Notes under the pieces: generated by a model | The model's input: only the letters and a program-made list of their open reading frames with translations | What the model was told of the DNA's origin: nothing | Databases searched by the model: none | Shown here: piece by piece, positions 6,566-19,990 of the stretch | Layout of the letters: every line of letters begins with the position of its first letter | Position numbering within the stretch: the stretch's first letter is position 1 | Virus record (IMG/VR): IMGVR_UViG_3300025000_000083 | Coordinates: 8,211-72,210 of that record | From: a virus | DNA: 64,000 nucleotides | Direction: 5' to 3' (one strand) | Program-made: the position numbers and the translations under genes

Positions 6566-7231
6566 TTATTTAATGTCATTGAGTTTGTATTCTGTAAGAT
6601 TATTTGCGATAATGTAATTATTCCGGGCAATTGCGGCTTCCTTAGGGGTCCTATGACACCCAAGATATATCTCTTTTTTATTCACACAAATACCCGCTTG
6701 CCAATGATTTAGGGTATTAGGGGAGAAGCAAATTCCTGTATATCCTGACGTATTTGTTCTTCTCATCTTGGTATTAGTCCCCTGTATATGCCTTGTAGCA
6801 TATCGTAAATTTCCCGGTTCATAATTACCTTCAGAGTCTATTCGGTCAATTGTGTAGCCTTCTTCACGATGATGAGGTAACTTATAGATATATGATATAA
6901 ACGCTTCCACGTCATTAAACCATTCATCACATAAGCGAATCCCCTTTCCTCCATAAAATTTATACTTTGGATTTTTTGGATTACATGTTCTTTCTTTTAT
7001 ATTCTGCCACACCTTAAAGTCTTTAAATTCACGCAATTCATGTATCCGATGAGAATCTCCTGCTCTTTTTCTCTGGTAGCAACCACAAGACATTGTATTG
7101 CCTCTTTTTACATTTATTATACTTGCTTTAAAATGAGACTTGCAAAAAGGGCATTCAAAAATTGCGTTGTGTTGCGGTTGTTTACTTGTAGGTGTTGCAT
7201 ACTGATGTCCTAAATCTTCAATCATTTTCAT
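6566..7231 (-). CDS. HNH/AP2 homing endonuclease-like protein
   Basis: SCGC, YGGKGI, IDRIDSEGNYEPGN, AP2-like NTSGYTGI..YLG..EAA.ARN; start at MKMIEDLG, upstream sequence is an RNA leader. Confidence 0.85.
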   Translation of the reverse strand: MKMIEDLGHQYATPTSKQPQHNAIFECPFCKSHFKASIINVKRGNTMSCGCYQRKRAGDSHRIHELREFKDFKVWQNIKERTCNPKNPKYKFYGGKGIRLCDEWFNDVEAFISYIYKLPHHREEGYTIDRIDSEGNYEPGNLRYATRHIQGTNTKMRRTNTSGYTGICFSPNTLNHWQAGICVNKKEIYLGCHRTPKEAAIARNNYIIANNLTEYKLNDIK

Positions 7232-7361
7232 GGCAGTAAATATAAGGGCTCCGCAAGCAGAAGGACTATCAACAACACCCGAAGGAGTAATTGCATCTGC
7301 TATTGGAGCCGTTAGTATTTCTTTTGATTGCATGATGTTGTTAATAGTCAATACAAAGATA
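7232..7361 (-). promoter_or_regulatory. promoter plus structured leader (type A) of endonuclease gene
   Basis: TATCTTTG 7354-7361; 7334-7349 complementary to 7264-7279; GGCTCC/GGAGCC stem. Confidence 0.6.
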
Positions 7362-9286: not shown

Positions 9287-9864
9287 AACGAATAATTGTA
9301 CTCTGCTTTACTACTTACCCATGACCTCTTTTGTGGCTCAATCCATTCAATGCCAATGAAGGCAAAGAAGTCCTCTTCCGTAATAAATGGAGGTGGCAAT
9401 GTCGGGCAATTCTTATACTCAGGCTTGATGCGCCACGTGCTCCCCTTATGATCACACTCTCTTTTATACCTTAATCCGTCCATTGTGCCACATAGACCCC
9501 TGCGATTCCATTGTACTGCCAACCCATGAGAAAAAACTGAGGATCCTGTCGAAATTGCAAGTATTCGTCCATAATCAGCAAGTGTAGTGACGTGCAACTC
9601 TATCTGAATGCCCGATTCGGGGTATTTGAAGCGTTTTAAGCGAGTGCCGTTCGTCACAAGTCCTTTGAATCCTTCCGGGAACGCAATTCCCATGGAGAAC
9701 TCGTCCTTGGGTACAATGACAAATTCTAAATCACCGACCATCTCACATTCCCGCCTAACTGAGCCAGCAATTGATATTTTTACACAAAAGGGAGAAATAT
9801 ATTTCTCAAACCTTTCTGCTATTTTTCTTGCTCGATCAAGAGACATTTTTAAATTTTTGCTCAT
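9283..9864 (-). CDS. minimal DNA polymerase X / Pol-beta-like nucleotidyltransferase
   Basis: IAGSVRR..GDLE, STGS, TEEDFF..IG..WIEP..R; start at MSKNLK (9864) or MSLD (9846). Confidence 0.8.
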   Translation of the reverse strand: MSKNLKMSLDRARKIAERFEKYISPFCVKISIAGSVRRECEMVGDLEFVIVPKDEFSMGIAFPEGFKGLVTNGTRLKRFKYPESGIQIELHVTTLADYGRILAISTGSSVFSHGLAVQWNRRGLCGTMDGLRYKRECDHKGSTWRIKPEYKNCPTLPPPFITEEDFFAFIGIEWIEPQKRSWVSSKAEYNYSL

Positions 9865-10609
9865 ATATTTTAATTGCCTCAATTTCAGTTTTAAAATATC
9901 CGAAAAAATATCGTTTCCCATTAATTCGTTTAGCCGCAGCCCATCTTCCATTAGAACAATATACCCCATTGTATTGAGAACTTTTTTTCTTTCTAAATTG
10001 AGTAAAGTCGATACTAGTGTGCTTCCATGATTTATTATAAATAATTCGAGATAATTGTTCTGTTTTAATTTTAAAAGCAGAAGCAATTTTGGATCGTGGG
10101 GTTTTTTCTAATAGCATATCATGTATTCTTTTTAAATCGGATTCTTTAATTTTAGAAAAAAAATTTTGTTCTCCTAACATTCCTGTTTTTAAACCTATAG
10201 TATAAGCATGTTTATTATTTTCACTTGTTGTACACCATTTAAGGTTACTCACATGATTACAGCTTTGTATTCCATTGATGTGATTTACTATTTTTTTGTC
10301 ACTTTTTTCTAAAAAAGTTATTGCAACTAATCTATGTACGTAGAATACCTTTTCTTTATTCTCTTTCCATAAAATAACATGAAAGTAATTTAACTGCTTA
10401 TTCCTTTTCCAATGGGATATAACTCTTGTTTTTGTATCAATATGCCCACATACGACACATTTTTTTTGAGACAAAGAAATTACCCTTCCATAATTACTTA
10501 TATAATATAGATTTTCATATTCAGGAATAGGCTTAAATATTTCATTAGGATACCTATATCTAAAATCTTTAAAATTAGAATCTTCGTAAATGTTTAAATA
10601 ATCTTTCAT
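9836..10609 (-). CDS. NUMOD4-HNH-AP2 homing endonuclease
   Basis: FKPIPEYENLYYISNYGRV, VHRLVA..F, VNHING...N...NL.W; AT-rich. Confidence 0.85.
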   Translation of the reverse strand: MKDYLNIYEDSNFKDFRYRYPNEIFKPIPEYENLYYISNYGRVISLSQKKCVVCGHIDTKTRVISHWKRNKQLNYFHVILWKENKEKVFYVHRLVAITFLEKSDKKIVNHINGIQSCNHVSNLKWCTTSENNKHAYTIGLKTGMLGEQNFFSKIKESDLKRIHDMLLEKTPRSKIASAFKIKTEQLSRIIYNKSWKHTSIDFTQFRKKKSSQYNGVYCSNGRWAAAKRINGKRYFFGYFKTEIEAIKIYEQKFKNVS

Positions 10610-10711
10610 TGTCAAGCTATTTAAGATTGTCAAGCAAAAAAGCAGAGAGAAGGAGGCTTGACTTCTCCGTATCACAGGGGGATCAATCCCTGCTATCTCT
10701 CCACAAATATA
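10608..10711 (-). promoter_or_regulatory. promoter plus structured antisense-type leader (type B)
   Basis: TATATTTG 10704-10711; CAGGGATTGATCCCCCTG hairpin; loop GTCAAGC complementary to 10-nt direct repeats at 10608 and 10626. Confidence 0.65.
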
Positions 10712-10736
10712 TGAACTGTTGTTCATCTGTGCAAGT

Positions 10737-11267
10737 TTATTTTTTATTTAAAGGATTAACAAAGTCATTCCGATACCGCCATGTTCTATTCTCCTTACCA
10801 AACTTACCCATCTCCCTCTCATCCCATGAGCATTTGATGAGCCTGTTTGCCTTTGTCAGATTGGTGATGCTCCTGCGCACCGAGTTAAGCAATATCTTCT
10901 CTCCCTCTGCTTCAAGTATCTCATGCACCTTTGCCGGGGTGAACTTGTATGCAAACCTCTTTCTGAAGAAGTCCAATACAATGCCGTTCTGCTTTGCTGC
11001 CGTATCACGTGCCTGTGATAGTTGTTCTTCTGGCAACGGTACGGTGTCATGAAATACATTTTCTGGTTCCTTCATAAAAAATCTTTCTGCACCGACAGGA
11101 AATCTATAATTTTCCATCTCCTTGGAAACTTCAATGTCTCTACATTCTTCCAAAATGCTCAAATGTTTATCCCTGTCTTTATCCTCCTCATGGAACGTCA
11201 ACTCAGGTTCTCTTGCAGACGGTAATGCCTCTGCTTTTCTTGGTCTGTGCTTATCAAATATTCCCAT
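10737..11267 (-). CDS. putative winged-helix DNA-binding protein
   Basis: C-terminal TP..VH...SVRRSITNL.....L.K......G..G.....W pattern. Confidence 0.5.
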   Translation of the reverse strand: MGIFDKHRPRKAEALPSAREPELTFHEEDKDRDKHLSILEECRDIEVSKEMENYRFPVGAERFFMKEPENVFHDTVPLPEEQLSQARDTAAKQNGIVLDFFRKRFAYKFTPAKVHEILEAEGEKILLNSVRRSITNLTKANRLIKCSWDEREMGKFGKENRTWRYRNDFVNPLNKK

Positions 11268-11278
11268 GTCTTATCCTC

Positions 11279-11590
11279 CTATCCCTTGATGCAAGTCAAT
11301 CCTGAAAGTCTGTTATACCACTTACCCTTGCCATCTTTGATGACCTTATTGCCATCCAGACAGAAGGTAATCGTACACCAACACCCATCGGTAAGCTGAT
11401 TAAGCTGAGTCATGTTCGTCTCATTGAACTCAAACATTACTTCCCTGGGATATTGCCCGATAAAAGTTTCCATGATTAAAATACGGAACTGTTTTGTTAC
11501 CCCTGCTTTTGTCGTGAATGTCTCTGGCATCCCTACGTGGATGACCTTGCCGGAATAATCAAATTGATTTACGCTCTTGTTTTGTGACAT
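11279..11590 (-). CDS. DUF3127-like OB-fold ssDNA-binding protein
   Basis: GKVI...QYP..V.FE........F.L.G...KWYN.L; typical of Bacteroidota. Confidence 0.7.
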   Translation of the reverse strand: MSQNKSVNQFDYSGKVIHVGMPETFTTKAGVTKQFRILIMETFIGQYPREVMFEFNETNMTQLNQLTDGCWCTITFCLDGNKVIKDGKGKWYNRLSGLTCIKG

Positions 11591-11598
11591 AGTTTTAG

Positions 11599-12015
11599 TT
11601 ATAAAGTTTGAATTAAAATATACGTTCTTGGTGACTCTGAATATAGCTTCTCTGAGAATAACCTGCATATCTGTGAGTCGTCTTTGTAAAATATGTGATT
11701 CATAGAATCGGTTGCGAATTTTACACAGTTATCCAAATCTTTCTTGCAGGTGTGAAACTCCGGTGCGTTATCTCTGAGCATGGAACTCTTTGCGCCACTA
11801 CCATAATGACTCTTTGGTCTGCCGAAATAGAATATTATGGTTATGCCTATGGGTCCTTCTAACGGCTCCTTTGGTGCTTTCTGCTGTATCACCGATAAAA
11901 AGTCATTTTTCTTATCACTTGATGGGTCATAGGTGCCTGAGAACTTACCTCTCTTGAAACTCCTGTGCCGCATCTGAGCATTGGGCTCACCAAGCATCAT
12001 TAATTCTATTGTCAT
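11599..12015 (-). CDS. rusA: RusA Holliday junction resolvase
   Basis: KKDLDNCVKFATDSMN...YKDDSQI. Confidence 0.9.
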   Translation of the reverse strand: MTIELMMLGEPNAQMRHRSFKRGKFSGTYDPSSDKKNDFLSVIQQKAPKEPLEGPIGITIIFYFGRPKSHYGSGAKSSMLRDNAPEFHTCKKDLDNCVKFATDSMNHIFYKDDSQICRLFSEKLYSESPRTYILIQTL

Positions 12016-12821
12016 TCTTTTATCTGTTTACCTATTATCCTCAACTTTTTTTCTGCATGACGTTTTATTTGAGACAAATGCATTTTTAATTTTGTCTCGG
12101 ATGTATGCAATTTCCCTAACCTATCCTTATTCCCTGTTTTGCATAGGCGCATTGCTTCTCTTTTTTCTTCTGACCACTTCCTCCCTACTGAATTTTTATT
12201 TCCTATCTTAGCCAAAGACATCTTTTTCCTTACTTCAAGAGACATGACTTTTCCTTTTTTAGCAAGACTCATTTTTAACTTTGCTTCATTTGAATGTGTC
12301 TTCCCTAAAAAGCTTTGCTGTCCCATTTTTGCCTTGCTGATATTCTCACATCTTTGTTTTTTATTATTATTCCAAGATTCACTAATTTTCTTTTTAAATT
12401 CTGGGGTTAATGGCTTCCCTTTTCCCCAAGGTATATGCCCCTTTTTAAATTCGGTATGCGGAGATATATGCAAGCCCTTATTTCGTAAACTCTGCTTTCT
12501 ACGTGATTCTACTGAATGCTTACAGCCAAGAGGGCTTCCCGCAATCTTAGAGATATTAAAATAAGGATTATATAAATCTATAAAAAATTGTTCGTTCCTA
12601 AGTAAATCAATCCTATCACAACCAATTAGCGTAGAAAAACACAAGTCATCTTCTCCATATTTATTGTAATGATCTTGCAATAAAAAAGAATGATGTTTTT
12701 GTAATCTAAGGTCTTTGATATGTATGTTTTTTCTTTGCTCTATATGGACTGAACTTCCAATATAGCATCTTTGAAGATTACTTATAGATTGAATCATGTA
12801 AATGCCAGTGGTTGCTTTCAT
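12012..12821 (-). CDS. GIY-YIG endonuclease with NUMOD3 repeats
   Basis: GIYMI..CYIGSS, EQFFID, HS.E.K.KMS repeats. Confidence 0.85.
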   Translation of the reverse strand: MKATTGIYMIQSISNLQRCYIGSSVHIEQRKNIHIKDLRLQKHHSFLLQDHYNKYGEDDLCFSTLIGCDRIDLLRNEQFFIDLYNPYFNISKIAGSPLGCKHSVESRRKQSLRNKGLHISPHTEFKKGHIPWGKGKPLTPEFKKKISESWNNNKKQRCENISKAKMGQQSFLGKTHSNEAKLKMSLAKKGKVMSLEVRKKMSLAKIGNKNSVGRKWSEEKREAMRLCKTGNKDRLGKLHTSETKLKMHLSQIKRHAEKKLRIIGKQIKE

Positions 12822-12954
12822 GTTAAGTATAAAAACCCCGATTGAAAGCGGCTTACTACTCGATCCATGTGATTGGAGGGAATACACTTTCGCACGGGGT
12901 GTTAATATTTCAGTTTCTTTTAACATGAATGAGTAGTAAAGCACTACAAATATA
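12822..12954 (-). promoter_or_regulatory. promoter plus structured leader (type A)
   Basis: TATATTTG 12947-12954; 12931-12942 complementary to 12851-12861; ACCCCG/CGGGGT stem plus T-run. Confidence 0.6.
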
Positions 12955-12965
12955 AGAAATTATGA

Positions 12966-13211
12966 TTACTTTGCTATACTTCGACCTATAATTTTTATCT
13001 GACCCGGCAAAAAGGTCTCAATTTGCCCTGTCTTAACGTGCTCACATACTGCTATGGTGTAGTTCACTGCTGCTATCCTTTCTGCATCCACATCAAACAC
13101 CTTGTAGTCCAATCCCCAATAATGAAGCCAGTATTCACCCTTCTCATACATCGGTTCTCCGTCCTTTAACTCTCCGTCCTTCTCCCATGTTGCTTCTACA
13201 AGTATCTTCAT
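12966..13211 (-). CDS. hypothetical protein
   Basis: 81-aa ORF. Confidence 0.55.
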   Translation of the reverse strand: MKILVEATWEKDGELKDGEPMYEKGEYWLHYWGLDYKVFDVDAERIAAVNYTIAVCEHVKTGQIETFLPGQIKIIGRSIAK

Positions 13212-13527
13212 CTTCTTTGTATTTCCAAATGTGTCCTGCCCTTGTTTTCTTTCCTGATTTCAATGATCTCAGTATCGCTCTTGATGTGTATCCTACTGCC
13301 TTTGCAGCCACAAGTTGATTCTCAAATTCCGCTATCTCGATCCCTCCAAGATCACACTGTATGATCTTCTTTCCCGTTGCGTGCCCATAGTGCTTTGTCC
13401 CTTCACAGAACGATATTGACACTAACTCCCTGATGTACTCCTCTGCCCTGTCCTGTCTCCATGGAGTAATCAACCCCTCCTTCTTCATCCAATACAATGC
13501 CCTCTTAACGGCTCGTTCCTGATCCAT
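13144..13527 (-). CDS. NUMOD1-domain DNA-binding protein
   Basis: KIIQCDLGG..IAEFEN...AA...G....I...L....K..AGHIWKY. Confidence 0.65.
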   Translation of the reverse strand: MDQERAVKRALYWMKKEGLITPWRQDRAEEYIRELVSISFCEGTKHYGHATGKKIIQCDLGGIEIAEFENQLVAAKAVGYTSRAILRSLKSGKKTRAGHIWKYKEDEDTCRSNMGEGRRVKGRRTDV

Positions 13528-14191
13528 CTCTTATAATATTCAATGGATGTTCCGTTCCATGTGCGATAACAAAATCATTGTAGGCTCGGGCTGCCTGTTC
13601 GGGGGTTAAGTGATATCCTAAACGGTATTTTTCCCCATTATAATGAATCTCAGCAACCCATCGTTTTATTCTTTCTCCTGTTTTAATATAAGAAATACCC
13701 CTATATCCTGTTGTATTTGTCTTTCTTAGTAGCCGGGTGTTCTCATTACTGATGTTTGATGTAATCCACCTGCAATTACTTGGGTAATAACCCTTGTCAT
13801 TATTTTCTCTGTCAAGCAATAATCCTTTTTTATACCCATTTACTATTGCCCAATTATAAAATGAAACAAAATTATTTTTCCATTCATCACAAATAGTTAT
13901 TCCCCTGCCCCCCCATTCTGGATATGCTTTATCTTTAGGATTCAAACACCGTTGTTGCATAGCCTTAAACACACCATAAAGAGGATGTTTGACTAACCCA
14001 TGCTTTATACTTCGTTCTAAAAATAATCTTGCGTTTTCACAATGGCATGATTTTATATACCCCCGGCTTATTGCACTTACACATGCTCTGAAAGGTTGCT
14101 TACAAATAGGGCATTCATAAATGGCAAGGTGCTTTTTTTGCTTACTATTCTCTGTTGTAAATTGTCTTCCTAAATCGTGAATCATTTTCAT
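13505..14191 (-). CDS. HNH/AP2 endonuclease-like protein, paralogue of 6566-7231
   Basis: MKMIHDLG..AIYECPIC; WGGRGITIC; LDRENNDKGYYPSNCRW; AP2-like tail. Confidence 0.85.
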   Translation of the reverse strand: MKMIHDLGRQFTTENSKQKKHLAIYECPICKQPFRACVSAISRGYIKSCHCENARLFLERSIKHGLVKHPLYGVFKAMQQRCLNPKDKAYPEWGGRGITICDEWKNNFVSFYNWAIVNGYKKGLLLDRENNDKGYYPSNCRWITSNISNENTRLLRKTNTTGYRGISYIKTGERIKRWVAEIHYNGEKYRLGYHLTPEQAARAYNDFVIAHGTEHPLNIIRDGSGTSR

Positions 14192-14334
14192 GGGTGGAAA
14201 TAATGGAGCATCCCCGGCTGCTTTAATCATCGGCATCTGTGTCGAAACGACAGAATTAGACGAAACCAGGGATGCAGTATTTTTACTTAAAATTTCCATT
14301 ATTCAGATACCGTGATTAAAGCGTAGTAAAGATA
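14192..14334 (-). promoter_or_regulatory. promoter plus structured leader (type A)
   Basis: TATCTTTA 14327-14334; 14304-14322 complementary to 14220-14239; GCATCCC/GGGATGC stem. Confidence 0.55.
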
Positions 14335-14342
14335 TGCTAATT

Positions 14343-15449
14343 TTATTCCCAATCCAAATTTATTTTATCAAACTCTTCCAGAACTCTTTCTTCAGAGGGC
14401 GATTCCTTGATCTTATTTGAAGCAACTCTGTTCTTTGATCCTTTCCTTTCGCTCCACGAATAGCTTCCGAGACGACCAAAGTCTATGGCTTCTGCTCCGC
14501 TTAAAGTAAGTTGTTTGATTAAAGTATTGGCAATGCCTGTGCGCTCCTCCTCAATAACATTCTTCACCTTTAGAAGCATTTTGTCCTGCTTACATAATCC
14601 ATACGCTTCCATCGTTCCCTCAATTGTCTCCCTTTCCTGTAGATACCTCTTATTAAGAAACTCCTGATAGGATTTCGTCTTATCGGGATCCGGTTCATGC
14701 TTCTGAATGATAGCATCCTGTTTTTCCACTTCAGATAGATTACCCGCTCTCTCAGCTTCCTGTCTTTTGGCAAATGCCTCTTTAGCGGGTAACACCCGGT
14801 TGTACCAAAATCCCTTGGTTATTTCAATGATTTTCTCACAGAGTCCATCATCACGCTGTATTTTCTCTACTCTTAGCCTATTGCCATTTTCCAGAATACA
14901 AATTTCGGCATAGTCAGATTCAATGATCGCCATGTACTGATGTATCTGCATGAGGTAATAAATGGGCATTCCGTCCTCCCATTTTTGGGCAACCCATTGG
15001 TTCATTGCCTTGCATTCCAATACGGCTTCTGTGGTCAGAGGATCGCCTGTAAGTAAGTTTCTTCCCCCTGTGATATTCATTACCCTGTCAAGAGATGCAA
15101 ATAGCCATGGATATTTTGGATTTACCACATACCCATTAACACTCCTGCATTCCCTTATGATCTTTTTATCCTTATAGTTCTGAATATAACCCTCTTGCGT
15201 TCCGTCCCAATAACGCCATTTATCTGCAATCTGATCTTCGAGTTCTCTTCCCCAAAACATAGACTCGTTATCGTTCTTGCGGGTATCAATAGTCCCTACT
15301 TTTTCATGGAATATCCATATTGCAGAATCATAGTCAGGATTAGGTAAAAGCAGATTCCCTACTTCAGAGCCGCCAATTCCATTTTTACGAAACCGATACC
15401 ATTCTTCGGAATGTTCTGGTATCCTGGTAATAATCAAATCACTTCTCAT
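14343..15449 (-). CDS. YqaJ/lambda-exonuclease family recombination nuclease
   Basis: EW...R..GIGGSE, WGRELE, ASLD, LECK, YLMQIHQYM. Confidence 0.9.
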   Translation of the reverse strand: MRSDLIITRIPEHSEEWYRFRKNGIGGSEVGNLLLPNPDYDSAIWIFHEKVGTIDTRKNDNESMFWGRELEDQIADKWRYWDGTQEGYIQNYKDKKIIRECRSVNGYVVNPKYPWLFASLDRVMNITGGRNLLTGDPLTTEAVLECKAMNQWVAQKWEDGMPIYYLMQIHQYMAIIESDYAEICILENGNRLRVEKIQRDDGLCEKIIEITKGFWYNRVLPAKEAFAKRQEAERAGNLSEVEKQDAIIQKHEPDPDKTKSYQEFLNKRYLQERETIEGTMEAYGLCKQDKMLLKVKNVIEEERTGIANTLIKQLTLSGAEAIDFGRLGSYSWSERKGSKNRVASNKIKESPSEERVLEEFDKINLDWE

Positions 15450-15565
15450 TTTTTCTGATGTATTTTTCAAGTTTCTTTTTAGCCCTTTTGAGTTTTCCCT
15501 TCTCAATTAATAAGGCTACATGAATATATTGTTCTAAACTAATGCCACTCATCGTTATATTTCTT

Positions 15566-15961
15566 TTATTGTCCCCAGAGTTCTTTCCTTCTTTTCTCTG
15601 CTGCCTTTAAGTTATCCTCTCCCAACTCAGTTTTTCTTCCGTGATCGTCAATACATTTGTCAGGCAGTAGTAAAAACATTCCCTTCGCATCAGGAATCCA
15701 GACAACATCATTATCTTTCCAATGAAAGTCTCCCCTCTCTCCTTTAAACGGAGGAATAAGGTCTGGCATTTCTTCTTCATCTTTTAGCATGTGTTTCAAA
15801 TCGGGAGGGAGTTGATCAAGATGATAAACTTCAACAATACATCCCTCTACTTTTTTGTACCAGAAAGGTAAGCACATATACTCATTTCCCCCTTCTGCAA
15901 TAAGGCTCCCTGACGATTCAATAAAATCAATTACTTCCTGTTTTACTTCTACTCTATCCAT
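15566..15961 (-). CDS. hypothetical protein
   Basis: Start placed at MDRVEV to avoid long overlap. Confidence 0.55.
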   Translation of the reverse strand: MDRVEVKQEVIDFIESSGSLIAEGGNEYMCLPFWYKKVEGCIVEVYHLDQLPPDLKHMLKDEEEMPDLIPPFKGERGDFHWKDNDVVWIPDAKGMFLLLPDKCIDDHGRKTELGEDNLKAAEKRRKELWGQ

Positions 15962-15963
15962 GG

Positions 15964-16392
15964 CTATTTCATGTTTAATGGTTGCGGAGGTTTGATGTCC
16001 AGCTTCAATGGCTGTAACTCTTTGTATATCTCTGTGAAGATTTCGTTGATCCAATCGGCTTGGATGCTCATCAACTCAACTTCCTGGCGACCTTCATTGC
16101 TGATGTCGCTGTACCATTTCGCATATAGTTTCGCTAAATTATTGACAAGCCTCTCGTGCTGTGCACATAGTTTCATTCCCTCATCATAGTGCGTTTGGTA
16201 CACCGCCAGCCATGCCTTGTAAGCATCGTACTGTGCCTGTCCTGCTTTCTTTTTGTCTTCGCTTTCCCATTTATAGGTGTCATCGTGCATGATGGCTTCG
16301 GCCTTGGCTACTTTCTCCTTCTGAGGGTCGAGTATCTTCTGCTTAAACACTTGCAATTTATTCGCAAACGCATAATCATTAACATTGCTCAT
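15964..16392 (-). CDS. hypothetical helical protein
   Basis: 142 aa, coupled to GroES-like gene. Confidence 0.6.
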   Translation of the reverse strand: MSNVNDYAFANKLQVFKQKILDPQKEKVAKAEAIMHDDTYKWESEDKKKAGQAQYDAYKAWLAVYQTHYDEGMKLCAQHERLVNNLAKLYAKWYSDISNEGRQEVELMSIQADWINEIFTEIYKELQPLKLDIKPPQPLNMK

Positions 16393-16670
16393 ATCTTCTT
16401 GTTTTTAGTTTTGTCCCTTCCAAAGAATAACCTGTGCTCATTGACCAGAAAATGATCAGTGCCATCAATCACCATCAGCGATGCACTCTTGCGTGGAAAG
16501 TAAACGTGCTCCCCCTTCTTGAATACCCTGCACTCACTACCCAAATCTGTTATTGTACCCCACTCAGGCAACATTTCCACAGAGTTTTTTGGGATGATGA
16601 GTTGTCCTGATGGTGTTCTCTCCGGCAATTTGTCCGGCTTAATAAGCACTACTGTTCCTAAAATTATCAT
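16389..16670 (-). CDS. groES: GroES/Cpn10-like co-chaperonin
   Basis: VLIKP...ERTPSG.LIIP....P.WG.I...G......K.G..V; 93 aa. Confidence 0.8.
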   Translation of the reverse strand: MIILGTVVLIKPDKLPERTPSGQLIIPKNSVEMLPEWGTITDLGSECRVFKKGEHVYFPRKSASLMVIDGTDHFLVNEHRLFFGRDKTKNKKI

Positions 16671-16692
16671 ATCAAATTGTTTTTAAGTTACA

Positions 16693-18663
16693 TCAAAAGG
16701 GCAGGTCCGACTCATTCTTTCCGTTATCTCCGAACACATCATCGTCCTTTTGGTTCTTTGGAGGATTAAGTGCTCCCCTTATTGGCTCCGGTGCTTTCTT
16801 TTCCTTGTCATCCACAAGTTCAAAACGTCCTCCCTTCTTATAGTCCATCTTCAACTTTACCCTGTCATGTATCCCTTCTTCTTCAAATCTTATCTTCTCT
16901 GTTCTGAGAATAGTAGGTGTTTCGGAATCTACAAAATACTTATCATCCTCATCTGCCTCCTCGGGAATATCCTCTTTCTTCTTCTTACGGTTCATATTCC
17001 GGTGAACAATGATACCTATGTCACTCTTCTCTTTCCATGCTGAACTCCCTTTGATGTCATACAAGCACGGCATCCGGTAGTTAATCCCTATTTTCTCTAT
17101 TTTGGTGGGGTGTGCAACGATTATGCCATGCAGGTCATAGTAGTCATTAAAATCAATGAGATGATCAAGCTGTGAACTTATATATGCCGTTTCAGTGATG
17201 TTCTTCGGCTGCTCATGTTCAATCTTGTTCCACGCATCAATGATATAACCAAAGATGTTCTCCGTCTTTTTGAGATACACAAGGTACTCGCATATTGATG
17301 CCATGGTGTTCACCTTATCTGATTTTATCTTGCCATTAAAGGTGTCAAAGTTCCTCCTGTCTGGTGATACGACAAAGAAATGCTTTTGTATGTACCACAT
17401 GGTCTTGTCACGCAATGGTTTTCCCATGGAGTTACCCCAACCATCCCTGAAATACTTGCCTGTGATAACCTCTGCTATCTTTACATATTCCCTACTTACT
17501 GGTCTGTTCTCAGGGGTGAATAACCCAAACTTCAAATCTGCTTTATCATTATGACTGATAAGTTCCGTGGTGTGCCATCTGACATACGTGCTCTTGCCTG
17601 ATCCGGGCAAGCCAGTAACCACCTGCAGTCTCTTTGGCTTCTCGGTATAGAGTCTGTCAATCTCTGGGGTTCCCATCATCAAACCTTTTGTAAACCCTTC
17701 CTTTGCATATACTTCAAGTTCATCCTTGACATCCATTGGCCTAATGATCCCTGCAAGCGGGAATGATGATAGATTCTGATAGCACTCATCAACACCCGCT
17801 TTCCCAAGTGCCGGAAGTTTCTTATCGTCTTTATTAACCCCTATATAAACTTCGTTTGAATCCTTGTACCCAATAGGATAATTAACATACTTGCACTTCT
17901 CTTTGCCAAGAAGCAACGCTAAGTGATTTCTTAACTTAATCCCTGCAGCATCTCCATCTGTGGCAATGATATGTAATTCAACGTCCGCAATGACACTTTG
18001 AACATACTTATCGTGAATATAATCAAACTCGTTTTCAAAATTCTTCGCTAAAAGACTTGGTGCCCCTGATGGTACGCTTATAATGTTTTTATAATCACAC
18101 TGAATCCACGTAAGAGTATCTACATGCCCTTCTGTCCACGTAAGTATCTTCTTCTCTTCGGGAGGAAAATTGACGTATTCGAGTCCCCACGGAAGCGTTC
18201 TGGTGCCATATTCCTTATTGAGATTCCACCATTTTGTAAAATCATCTCCCTTCTTCCACCGGATATTAAGATACTTCACATCTACAAGAGTCTGGCTGAT
18301 GTAGGTAGGGAAGCCAAGTATAGGCTTCTGCCCCATGGAAAATTCAAAAACCTTTCTTCCTAATGGAATCTTTAAGTCAATTCCTCTGCTCTCCCAATAT
18401 GCTCTTATCTCCTTCGAGTAGGTTTCAGCAAACTGCTTTGGCATTTTAGACCTCTCTTGTACCTTAGCATAAATCTCCATTGCCCCCAAATTAGCACTCC
18501 ATGAGCAATGATGACATTTTATCCAAACATTTCCGGGCTCATTATTAACGGTAAGGCACGGTGCGTTCTTATGATGCTGACGAGTATCATTGCACTTTGG
18601 GCACTGCGTTGACCAACGTACTTTTCCGGGAATTGTTTTTATGCCGAGGTCTTCGAGAATCAT
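16693..18663 (-). CDS. T7 gp4/Twinkle-like primase-helicase
   Basis: Zn ribbon CPKC/CHHC, Toprim TEG..D and D.D.AG, Walker A GLPGSGKS, VAHP.K, DIKGS. Confidence 0.92.
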   Translation of the reverse strand: MILEDLGIKTIPGKVRWSTQCPKCNDTRQHHKNAPCLTVNNEPGNVWIKCHHCSWSANLGAMEIYAKVQERSKMPKQFAETYSKEIRAYWESRGIDLKIPLGRKVFEFSMGQKPILGFPTYISQTLVDVKYLNIRWKKGDDFTKWWNLNKEYGTRTLPWGLEYVNFPPEEKKILTWTEGHVDTLTWIQCDYKNIISVPSGAPSLLAKNFENEFDYIHDKYVQSVIADVELHIIATDGDAAGIKLRNHLALLLGKEKCKYVNYPIGYKDSNEVYIGVNKDDKKLPALGKAGVDECYQNLSSFPLAGIIRPMDVKDELEVYAKEGFTKGLMMGTPEIDRLYTEKPKRLQVVTGLPGSGKSTYVRWHTTELISHNDKADLKFGLFTPENRPVSREYVKIAEVITGKYFRDGWGNSMGKPLRDKTMWYIQKHFFVVSPDRRNFDTFNGKIKSDKVNTMASICEYLVYLKKTENIFGYIIDAWNKIEHEQPKNITETAYISSQLDHLIDFNDYYDLHGIIVAHPTKIEKIGINYRMPCLYDIKGSSAWKEKSDIGIIVHRNMNRKKKKEDIPEEADEDDKYFVDSETPTILRTEKIRFEEEGIHDRVKLKMDYKKGGRFELVDDKEKKAPEPIRGALNPPKNQKDDDVFGDNGKNESDLPF

Positions 18664-18989
18664 ACCTTAATATACTTTTCTGACTTTTCATTACGTACGA
18701 TGAACTTCGGGCCATCATTACCTTCTTTGTCTGGATACAAGTAACAGTAGTCCAGTTCGGTGTCATACTTGCCATCTATTATCAGTGGCCTTGTTTTATT
18801 GGTAATTGTTGATACTGCCAAATTCGTTATGAGGGCAAACTGGCTTATCGTAAAGACATTGTAAAGCATTATTGTCTTTATCCTATCTTCATCCATCCCT
18901 GTTTTTAAGGATATTGCTTTAATGAGCTCGGTGTCCGTCTTATGCAATTGACACTTTACTCCCCTTATAAGTCCAAATTTTTCTTCCAT
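18660..18989 (-). CDS. putative HTH DNA-binding protein
   Basis: FTISQFALITNLAVSTITN; preceded by TAnnTTTG motifs near 19010-19045. Confidence 0.5.
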   Translation of the reverse strand: MEEKFGLIRGVKCQLHKTDTELIKAISLKTGMDEDRIKTIMLYNVFTISQFALITNLAVSTITNKTRPLIIDGKYDTELDYCYLYPDKEGNDGPKFIVRNEKSEKYIKV

Positions 18990-19142
18990 GGTGAAATAAT
19001 TGATTCATGCAAAGCTAATGCTTGTTATTTTATTTTGCAAATATATTTTATAATTTGTTTTTGTAAAGTTATTAACAGCCACCAAATAAAAAGGGAAACA
19101 TTACTGTCTCCCTGATTCGATGCGTCTGAGATGCACAATAAG

Positions 19143-19889
19143 TTAATTTTTATCTTTCTGACGCACTCGTCTTATTTTCCATGCTAATACTAATTTTGTT
19201 TTTTGTTCTTGGGACATAGGGATTCCTTTATTATGAGCAGGGGTACCCTTACGTGCTTCACTTATCTTCTTTTTTATTTCATCTAACATAGGTCCTCGCT
19301 TTGGCATCTTATGAGATTTTCCTATTCTACAAAGACTTCTATTTATTAATGCCTGCCCAACTATTTTTCTTCCTTTATTTGCCTTAATTATTGCTTGCCT
19401 GGTTTTTTCTGGCATTTTCCTTCCAAAATTAGGATGCTTATCTCCCTTAATAGATAATCCTCTTCTCTTTTTCCATTCCTCAGACTGTATGCGTCCTTTG
19501 TTAGCTATACTCATTTTCCTTCTAACTTCTTCTGGTATTATCTTACCTCTATTAGCCTTTATTATTTTTTGCTTAGTTTCTTCAGTCATTTTGCGACCCA
19601 ATGTACTTCCTGCTATTTTACATACATTAAAGTATGGCTGCAGAGTGTTAATATAGTATTGTTCTCTCTCAATAAGAAATTGAGGCAAACAGGGTTCTAT
19701 GATTGAAAAAATCAAATCATCAATCCCATATTTATCTGCATGATGTTGAAGTTTGGGATTATGATGAGTTTTTAGCCTAAGTTGTCTTTTGTGATCCGCC
19801 CATCTATTTTTATAATAAATAGCACTCCCAATGTAAATCCTTTCGGGCTTAACCTTGGATTGAATCTTATATATGACAGGAACGATCAT
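19143..19889 (-). CDS. GIY-YIG endonuclease with NUMOD3 repeats
   Basis: VIYKIQSKVKPERIYIGSA, EREQYYI. Confidence 0.85.
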   Translation of the reverse strand: MIVPVIYKIQSKVKPERIYIGSAIYYKNRWADHKRQLRLKTHHNPKLQHHADKYGIDDLIFSIIEPCLPQFLIEREQYYINTLQPYFNVCKIAGSTLGRKMTEETKQKIIKANRGKIIPEEVRRKMSIANKGRIQSEEWKKRRGLSIKGDKHPNFGRKMPEKTRQAIIKANKGRKIVGQALINRSLCRIGKSHKMPKRGPMLDEIKKKISEARKGTPAHNKGIPMSQEQKTKLVLAWKIRRVRQKDKN

Positions 19890-19990
19890 AACTGAACTTA
19901 TTAATGACACTGAACTTAAAAAAGATGGAAGAGCGTTCAGTAAACCCTTGTCATCGGGGGATCAATCCCGACTATCCATCTTCAAAGATA
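19890..19990 (-). promoter_or_regulatory. promoter plus structured antisense-type leader (type B)
   Basis: TATCTTTG 19983-19990; TCGGGATTGATCCCCCGA hairpin; loop ACTGAAC complementary to 10-nt repeats at 19891 and 19909. Confidence 0.65.

Follow-up and report, generated by a model that had tools for sequence, protein, structure and literature searches.

A covarying RNA with a loop complementary to two sites ahead of the start codon precedes unrelated homing endonuclease genes in probable Bacteroidota phages

Few selfish genes are as common in phages as those of free-standing homing endonucleases, and to our knowledge little has been described of how they are tamed outside the T4-like phages. 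We analyzed a 64,000-nucleotide stretch of viral DNA (hereafter, the window), which comprises bases 8211–72210 of IMG/VR virus record IMGVR_UViG_3300025000_000083; the record is complete, is 72,210 bp long, and carries terminal repeats. Its minus strand carries an HNH homing endonuclease gene and a GIY-YIG homing endonuclease gene, each headed by a copy of one RNA module, which we refer to as element A and element B, respectively (Table 1). An earlier note, made from the letters of the window, had described the same module at both positions and in the same order, with a TAnnTTTG box, an outer stem, and a U-run in each copy, and both the sequence and the predicted fold confirmed that description. 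The module spans ~105 nt and consists of the box, an outer stem of 7–9 bp (P1), a UAG linker, a first hairpin (P2), a UGAnAn linker, a second hairpin (P3), six U residues, and two target sites. In the window copies P2 has a 5–6-bp stem topped by the 8-nt loop AUUGAUCC, and P3 has a 3–4-bp stem with a 9–11-nt loop.

The consensus of the Bacteroidota −7 promoter element is TAnnTTTG. By pattern match the window contains 80 such boxes where 58.7 were expected, a count reached in 2 of 100 shuffles, and the relatives of the phage primase, all below 60% identity, come mostly from Flavobacterium and Cellulophaga phages; for these two reasons the host is probably a member of the Bacteroidota. No near DNA match of the phage was present among 50,697 phage records.

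Both target sites of each window copy are the exact complement of seven nucleotides of that copy's own P3 loop, and the two copies use different sequences to achieve it (loop/site GUCAAGC/GCUUGAC in element A and ACUGAAC/GUUCAGU in element B). What had been taken for a 7-nt loop is thus a 7-nt complementary core within loops of 9 nt (A) and 11 nt (B), and the two repeats, which had been reported as 10 nt long and 18 nt apart, are 10 nt long in element A and 9 nt long in element B, with 18 nt from start to start. Shuffling of the downstream stretch produced a pair of perfect 7-mer sites in 8 and 5 of 100000 trials. RNAfold predicted the same three-way junction for both elements, and the differences between the copies preserve it: P1 is changed at three of its nine pairs, with compensation, and the ends of the P2 stem are swapped, in agreement with the compensatory hairpin ends that had been noticed at the outset. 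By eye, an alternative fold of element A that pairs GGAGAAG with CUUCUCU was not conserved in element B and was set aside, and a tRNA and tmRNA search found none.

Table 1. Positions in the window of the two RNA elements, their parts, and the genes behind them.
Feature	Position	Strand	Description	Basis
Element A, −7 box	10704..10711	-	putative promoter box of Bacteroidota type, TATATTTG	sequence and pattern match; predicted transcription start
Element A, RNA	10636..10704	-	P1, UAG linker, P2, UGAUAC linker, P3, U-run	fold and covariance models
Element A, P1	10696-10704 with 10642-10650	-	GUGGAGAGA pairs with UCUCUCUGC	fold
Element A, P2 hairpin	10674..10693	-	8-nt loop AUUGAUCC at 10680-10687, palindrome GAUC	
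Element A, P3 hairpin	10652..10668	-	9-nt loop AAGUCAAGC at 10656-10664, antisense core GUCAAGC	
Element A, U-run	10636..10641	-	U6 after P1	sequence
Element A, target site 1	10629..10635	-	GCTTGAC, immediately 3′ of U-run	complementarity to P3 loop
Element A, target site 2	10611..10617	-	GCTTGAC, 1 base ahead of ATG	complementarity to P3 loop
HNH homing endonuclease gene	9836..10609	-	NUMOD4 + HNH_3, 257 aa, ATG 10607-10609	Pfam
Element B, −7 box	19983..19990	-	putative promoter box, TATCTTTG	sequence and pattern match
Element B, RNA	19918..19983	-	P1, UAG linker, P2, UGACAA linker, P3, U-run	fold and covariance models
Element B, P1	19975-19983 with 19921-19929	-	GAAGAUGGA pairs with UCCAUCUUU	fold
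Element B, P2 hairpin	19954..19971	-	loop AUUGAUCC at 19959-19966, identical to element A loop	
Element B, P3 hairpin	19931..19947	-	loop UUUACUGAACG, antisense core ACUGAAC	
Element B, U-run	19918..19923	-	six U	sequence
Element B, target site 1	19909..19915	-	GTTCAGT	complementarity to P3 loop
Element B, target site 2	19891..19897	-	GTTCAGT, 1 base ahead of ATG	complementarity to P3 loop
GIY-YIG homing endonuclease gene	19143..19889	-	GIY-YIG + NUMOD3, 248 aa, ATG 19887-19889	Pfam

The search for relatives began from the 14-mer at the P2 apex, of which an exact-pattern scan of viral contigs found at least 109 loci. Among the matches listed, 53 of 97 distinct occurrences had a stem of at least 5 bp, compared with ~14% expected, so in phage DNA the 14-mer is mostly the apex of a hairpin. 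By eye, the listed loci fell into several layouts, and one of these (the 'CTAG type') shares the three-way junction of the window copies. Narrower scans returned window-type ('ATAG type') copies in viral contigs (L165 and L168) and in metagenome contigs (L171/L184/L187, L172, L173, L176, L177, L179, L181, L185, and L188). Covariance model R1, built from an alignment (A2) of 16 sequences, assigned 42–65 bits to members left out of its building and matched the window at the two elements only (61.5 bits for A and 63.4 bits for B; next best, 11.2 bits); with model R2 the elements scored 67.8 and 73.1 bits, respectively. The whole 72,210-bp genome holds these two copies of the motif and no other, and the count of the 14-mer in the window with two mismatches allowed (2 seen, 1.39 expected) was uninformative. 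A contig scan with the CTAG form gave a single match, at 21.4 bits in a Chloroflexia metagenome-assembled genome, which by eye lacked the architecture and was rejected.

Because the scans for the ATAG and CTAG types had demanded the P2 motif, we fetched further loci by protein alone. The RNA was present at 3 of 80 loci for the NUMOD4-HNH family (L285, L268, and L290), at 1 of 80 for a Zn-ribbon/AP2-like family (L319; the scan used alignment A9, as alignment A8 had no stretch conserved enough), and directly ahead of the ATG at 64 of 80 for DUF1376 genes. The contig of L165 carries a second RNA copy (L204), and L123 is a divergent copy that scored 23–31 bits and is without a U-run and clear sites. 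In all, the module heads 15 further endonuclease-type genes, for 17 distinct endonuclease-type copies with the window pair. Behind these copies lie NUMOD4+HNH_3 genes recognized by Pfam (five), further HNH relatives recognized by tblastn (four), a GIY-YIG+NUMOD3 gene, a T5orf172 gene, the gene of a Zn-finger protein of no family, and five members of the Zn-ribbon family, which are homologous to window open reading frames (ORFs) 6566–7351 and 13505–14299, the latter with a sub-threshold AP2 hit. The module is thus shared by unrelated endonucleases, as had been claimed, although it is not specific to nucleases: a sister subfamily heads the DUF1376 genes, and the idea of a switch for toxic nucleases specifically was not borne out.

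The range of genes behind the module speaks to whether its repeats might act as DNA. In such a scheme a protein, for instance the endonuclease itself, would bind the direct repeats together with their inverted copy from the loop, much as I-TevI represses its own promoter through an operator resembling its homing site, as related in the relevant part of PMC2988022; the position of the repeats, between promoter and gene, would suit an operator. However, the module heads at least four unrelated families that differ in their DNA-binding parts (NUMOD4-HNH, GIY-YIG-NUMOD3, T5orf172, and Zn-ribbon/AP2-like) as well as DUF1376 genes, the inverted copy is without exception part of the loop that closes a covarying helix, and G-U pairs between loop and site are tolerated (L165, L172, and L181), which makes sense for RNA but not for DNA. 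We therefore consider a DNA operator very improbable.

Alignment of 24 distinct copies supported the fold. Because this alignment was fitted to the model, it favours structure, and the controls with slid partners share it; with that proviso, 94.9% of cells were paired compared with 46–60% for slid partners. Nine of the 14 pairs were altered on both sides, P1, P2, and P3 all covaried, and the covariation score of 0.611 (0.205 in shuffles) was reached in none of 500 shuffles. The prediction that a structured RNA family with covariation would emerge was thereby upheld.

The loop and its targets changed together. Each of the 13 aligned copies of the homing endonuclease gene (HEG) type carried a pair of sites complementary to its P3 loop, whose sequence differed from copy to copy; with L204, L285, L290, and L319 added, two clear sites were found in 16 of 17 distinct HEG-type copies, those of L268 being weak. 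The spacing between the sites was 12–22 nt (median, 18), and in the 13 aligned copies site 1 ended 18–22 nt ahead of the ATG and site 2 ended −1 to 6 nt ahead of it. At least one perfect 6-mer site was present in 12 of 12 self pairs compared with 11 of 132 non-self pairs, so that pairing is kept while loops and targets differ, as had been proposed from the window copies and as now seen in every copy. Judged by its sequence, L185, a related phage with the HNH cassette at the same genomic site, is the cleanest case: homologues of the upstream genes are 56% and 61% identical in amino acids to those of the window and the HNH protein is 44% identical, the promoter and P1 are the same, and the loop and sites read ACCAGAC and twice GUCUGGU where the window has GUCAAGC and twice GCUUGAC. 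L179, whose HNH protein is 45% identical, has ACCAAGC and twice GCUUGGU. In the DUF1376 type the signal was weaker, with 37 of 51 distinct copies matching their own loop in at least one 6-mer site versus 15.7% of non-self pairs, and a comparison of duplex energies between self and non-self pairs was uninformative because DUF1376-type loops are all C/U-rich.

These pairings bear on the idea that the module is only a branched terminator or insulator, which would shield the phage operon from the inserted gene and in which any match between loop and sites would be incidental. P1 and the U-run do come after the stop of the upstream gene, and in two other phages, L028 and L047, the same loop is found in a GGG-AUUGAUCC-CCC apex on plain hairpins that resemble terminators. 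A match that is retained with a different sequence in each copy, and that was as rare in shuffles as given above, nonetheless already contradicts this idea, and we give it next to no credence.

Comparison with related phages indicated that the RNA travels with the gene behind it. Through the primase we collected 43 related phage loci (46–69% identity), in which the backbone was syntenic. A match to the window's GIY-YIG genes was found in none of the 43, and the HNH gene had a match in 4 and none in 39; the loci contained 12 approximate matches to the motif, none of which by eye had the flanks of the element. Because both are mostly absent from these syntenic loci, the RNA and the nuclease gene are, as far as gene content tells, gained and lost together, and the portability claimed in the earlier note agrees with their joint presence or absence among related phages. 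In viral contigs, the search for close relatives of the two nucleases returned one distant GIY-YIG protein at 28% identity and no HNH protein. Contigs from four DNA runs contained no joint across either cassette, where parts left uncovered were not counted as evidence.

The RNA had no counterpart in Rfam 15. No family matched the 64-kb window at its gathering score, with chance-level matches only at E≤10; C4 (RF01695) had no match at E≤10 around either element, and 12 other members had no match of any kind at E≤1. The closest approach was isrK (RF01394), which matched element B at 16.8 bits against a gathering score of 50 (E 0.08–0.17) and did not match element A. The family is therefore new to Rfam, as the earlier note had suspected, and we regard it as a widespread variant of the type of phage antisense control represented by c4, CI, and IsrK. 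In our literature search the letters of the motif led to no relevant paper, and the comparable RNAs already described came down to c4, IsrK, and the T4 hairpins, apart from a catalogue (PMC10690425) that lists 10,006 viral RNA candidates without names. The supplementary table of that catalogue includes candidates ahead of HNH/NUMOD4 and DUF1376 genes, one of them with 54 DUF1376 neighbours, and, to go by the table, our family may be among its entries.

The analogy with the C4 RNA of P1 and the CI RNA of P4, drawn when the module was first noticed, proved fair. Like the c4 RNA of P1/P7 (record AF234172), the module lies 5′ of the gene that it would control and in the same orientation, has an outer stem enclosing two hairpins, and offers unpaired segments complementary to short, repeated sites just ahead of the next gene (a2 and b2 of c4, before icd). 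It differs from c4 in having no similarity in sequence or model (R1 had no match at the P1 locus), in its stems (the outer stem of c4 is 17 bp long, and c4 includes a UUCG hairpin), and in using one loop for two like sites, where c4 has two different antisense segments (a′ and b′), each with its own site, and a2 and b2 are unlike. It also differs in having its own putative promoter, a U-run, and a palindromic P2 loop. The c4 RNA is excised from a longer transcript by RNase P; in our module the promoter box adjoins P1, which argues for a primary transcript rather than processing.

In P4, which we compared by description, a single antisense segment of CI RNA (seqB) pairs with two complementary sites (seqA and seqC) on the same transcript, as we propose for our module; there, according to the pertinent section of PMC4825925, the sites flank the RNA, the effect is premature termination of transcription, and CI is made by processing, whereas in our module the RNA precedes the two sites, which are close to the ATG. 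The same source describes IsrK of Salmonella Gifsy-1 as a short RNA that ends at its own terminator and acts on its own read-through mRNA, both made from one promoter, an arrangement like that predicted for the module; IsrK and element B also have a GGGAUUG...CCC hairpin in common, at the level of the weak model match. Unlike the module, IsrK lacks paired short repeated sites at a start codon. In T-even phages, RNA structures over the ribosome-binding site (RBS) repress endonuclease genes (I-TevI, I-TevII, I-TevIII, segB, and mobE of Aeh1) and so keep the nuclease untranslated; as the part of PMC2988022 concerned with them relates, these hairpins are simple, local to the RBS, and bypassed by late promoters. 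Our module has in their place a separate three-armed RNA with a putative terminator, in which a loop would pair with two sites, and it is portable between families.

Taken together, the evidence makes it probable that an RNA running from promoter to terminator, as a small RNA or as a leader, blocks the initiation of translation by pairing of its loop with the two sites. Each element would constitute a self-contained control cassette of a free-standing HEG. The promoter, a few bases 5′ of P1, would start an RNA of ~65 nt that folds into the P1/P2/P3 junction; P1 and the U-run would act as an intrinsic terminator, such that transcription would mostly yield the small RNA and less often continue into the nuclease gene. 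The P3 loop, of 7–11 nt, would then pair with the two sites on the read-through mRNA, either intramolecularly or, when the loop belongs to a free small RNA, in trans, thereby covering about −27 to −1, which is the landing zone of the 30S subunit, and translation of the nuclease would stay very low. Because the start regions of elements A and B are A/U-rich and weakly structured in the fold, pairing would be expected to block initiation and not to open it. The placement of the signals fits such a transcript: in the 13 aligned copies a box ends 8–11 nt 5′ of the UAG linker, mostly of the TAnnTTTG type but of the TAnnTTTA type in L173, L177, and L181, the DUF1376 subfamily has, by eye, hexamers like a sigma-70 −10 element 6–7 nt 5′ of P1, and a U-rich tract lies 3′ of P1 in 17 of 18 copies (the 17 and the divergent L123). 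In both window copies the 7–9 bp of P1 are followed directly by U6, and this stem, which encloses two hairpins, is a predicted terminator only.

Several observations weigh against this proposal. The predicted folds are not significantly stable (z = −1.44 and 0.08 for stretches of 113–115 nt, and −1.55 for each core). A simple terminator scan made no call on P1 and the U-run, because the branched stem, with its two enclosed hairpins, exceeds the scan's loop limit of 3–8 nt. A start 3–7 nt past the −7 box would leave only ~5–6 bp of P1 in primary transcripts of the window copies, and the U-tract is broken in several relatives and absent in L123. No RNA run containing the phage was listed among 16 runs. 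Copies of the DUF1376 type have a C/U-rich antisense region and targets that resemble Shine-Dalgarno (SD) sequences, which makes non-self pairing common in that type. Finally, IsrK, whose layout the module resembles, is an activator that works by remodelling a helix of ~30 nt (PMC4825925, in the section on that RNA).

An IsrK-like activator would be a short RNA that binds the read-through mRNA and turns translation on, for example by displacing a cis loop from the start. The shared layout (promoter, short terminated RNA, and a read-through mRNA with the same sequence; PMC4825925, same section) and the weak isrK match of element B, which involves the common hairpin CGGGaUUGGcAuCCCG, would fit such a role. 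Yet the loop of the free RNA is identical to that of the cis copy, and the free RNA would bind the same sites, 0–6 nt 5′ of the ATG, where it should block the ribosome; no alternative inhibitory structure is predicted around the start, the isrK match is far below threshold, and none of the 12 other members shared it. Activation by this RNA accordingly strikes us as improbable.

A less remote alternative is that the module acts solely in cis, as a leader or attenuator in which the P3 loop pairs within read-through transcripts to form a pseudoknot over the start, with the terminated product having no function. The loop and sites are always on the same strand, 25–60 nt apart, and intramolecular pairing is kinetically favoured. 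Moreover, a third endonuclease gene of the window, of the GIY-YIG family, has a leader that looks purely cis-acting (z = −3.9), with CAUGUUAA paired to UUAACAUG at the start codon, and T-even endonuclease genes use cis hairpins (PMC2988022, in the part cited above). But a single loop cannot fill two sites together, and two are nevertheless kept in nearly every HEG-type copy; a putative promoter of its own at P1, with a U-rich tract right after P1, is the layout of a discrete small RNA; and the palindromic P2 loops considered below suggest contacts between molecules. Action in cis alone is on balance unlikely, and translational block by an RNA that pairs in cis or in trans remains our preferred interpretation. 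The original observation was confirmed, and its interpretation, supported in part, was largely right but too narrow.

The module defines a compact, portable cassette of a promoter, a three-armed RNA, a terminator (promoter and terminator both predicted), and two target sites. In probable Bacteroidota phages this cassette travels with nucleases of at least four unrelated families, and it has a sister form ahead of most DUF1376 genes sampled. Because the loop/site pairs are short and orthogonal and have been reprogrammed by nature in each copy, they would make an attractive programmable translational lock, testable by compensatory mutations.

We then considered the P2 loop. The segment GGGATTGATCCCC, which had been called invariant, is indeed identical in elements A and B but is variable across the family, in which the loops are mostly palindromes. 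Copies found without requiring the motif had the P2 loops AGUAGCUA (L204 and L290), ACUUGCAAA (L285), GGUCGCGA (L268), ACUUAGUACCC (L319), and AAUAAGCUC (L123). With AUUGAUCC included, all six of the six loop types hold a palindrome (GAUC, UAGCUA, UUGCAA, UCGCGA, GUAC, or AGCU). The chance that six of six loops would hold a palindrome of at least 4 nt, with at least three of them of 6 nt, ranged from 7e-5 for random loops to 4e-4 for shuffles of the loops' own letters, and among control P3 loops a 4-nt palindrome occurred in 6 of 18 and a 6-nt palindrome in 1 of 18. An independent set of 64 DUF1376-linked P2 loops comprised 21 with a GAUC core, 1 with CUUGAUCA, 6 with UAGCUA, 4 with UAAUUA, 21 with UCAUGA, 6 with UUGCUA or UUGCUC (one mismatch off a palindrome), and 5 short P2 hairpins without a palindrome; a palindrome was therefore present in 53 and a perfect hexamer in 32, counts that refer to sequences and not to events, as many copies are related. 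The general format was two bases followed by a U-NNNN-A hexamer that in most copies is self-complementary (UAGCUA, UCAUGA, UAAUUA, UGAUCA, UUGCAA, or UCGCGA).

An apical palindrome flanked by unpaired bases is a known format of RNA homodimer sites, found as 4- or 6-nt palindromes in the HIV-1 DIS, the hatchet ribozyme, and the guanidine-II riboswitch (PMC7357161, in the part on such sites). We tentatively suggest, and hold to be somewhat doubtful, that P2 is a kissing-loop dimerisation hairpin and that paired molecules (two free small RNAs, or the mRNA leader and one free small RNA) would each place a P3 loop on one of the tandem sites, to give a cooperative bivalent clamp across the whole ribosome landing zone. 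Such dimers would explain why there are two sites for one loop. On the other side, the commonest loop (GAUC) has only four complementary bases, 11 of the 64 copies have no palindrome, and the copies with a short P2 keep two sites. Unlike that of the known kissing-loop systems, dimerisation of P2 is predicted from sequence, and its commonest loop is a palindrome of only 4 nt. Our literature search found no palindromic loop linked to an antisense regulator whose targets lie in tandem. Few natural RNAs function as homodimers, a rarity noted in PMC7357161, and if P2 dimers form, a regulatory small RNA would join this very short list, as a natural homodimeric antisense regulator of bacteria or phages.

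Other roles for the P2 loop were considered and dropped. The 3′ tail of 16S rRNA is GGAUCA, complementary to AUUGAUCC; pairing with this tail was rejected because relatives have other palindromes instead. A T-loop or tRNA-like element, a CsrA site, and a hammerhead core were each a misfit to the sequence by eye.

The AUUGAUCC hairpin also occurs in a second large family with another layout (L012, L015, L022, L031, L044, L045, L053, L054, L058, L074, L087–L089, L092, L098, L101, and L108). There, a hairpin with CUCCUGAC complements the SD-containing GUCAGGAG ahead of a conserved gene of unknown family whose product starts with MWIQ, and a GCUCUUU stretch follows the third hairpin; the two loci tried had no Rfam match. 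In L062 the same apex tops the first hairpin of a manA RNA (63.2 bits), the one such RNA among 20 other 14-mer loci compared with Rfam.

The third endonuclease gene of the window (GIY-YIG + NUMOD3, 12012–12821) comes with a TATATTTG box and with a structured leader unlike that of elements A and B (12815–12954, minus strand), in which a CCCCG...CGGGG stem is followed by U5; none of 200 shuffles was as stable. This leader looks like a different RNA with the same purpose. A contig from a sediment run, ~90% alike, connects position 12044 to 14343 and so appears to skip this gene, two small ORFs, and the AP2-like ORF. Elsewhere, TATCTTTG recurs at 7354–7361 (minus strand) right ahead of the HEG-like ORF 6566–7351, which is without a structured leader, and TATATTTG recurs at 19038–19045 (minus strand), 3′ of the GIY-YIG gene of element B and 5′ of ORF 18660–18989 and the primase gene, where it resembles a promoter that would restart transcription of the essential genes beyond the cassette insertion.

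Six further loci (L178, L189, L190 and L191, L195, L198) proved to belong to the genome of the window itself, on a single metagenome contig of 216,338 bp, which carries each window element three times in steps of ~72.08 kb, the length of one phage genome, and looks like a three-fold concatemer of it. In L156 (10001–12854), a related phage, the primase match is split (residues 1–379 and 354–635) around an HNH-like stretch 28% identical to the window HNH protein, which could be an insertion of the intein or intron type. In L123, likewise a related phage, an insert of 3.5 kb lies behind the primase, with repeat-bearing stretches at 12696–13484 and 14436–14928; it contains an ORF with a long run of short, near-identical, GDAWVSGDARVYG-like repeats and a stretch of repeats resembling GY/GN dipeptides.

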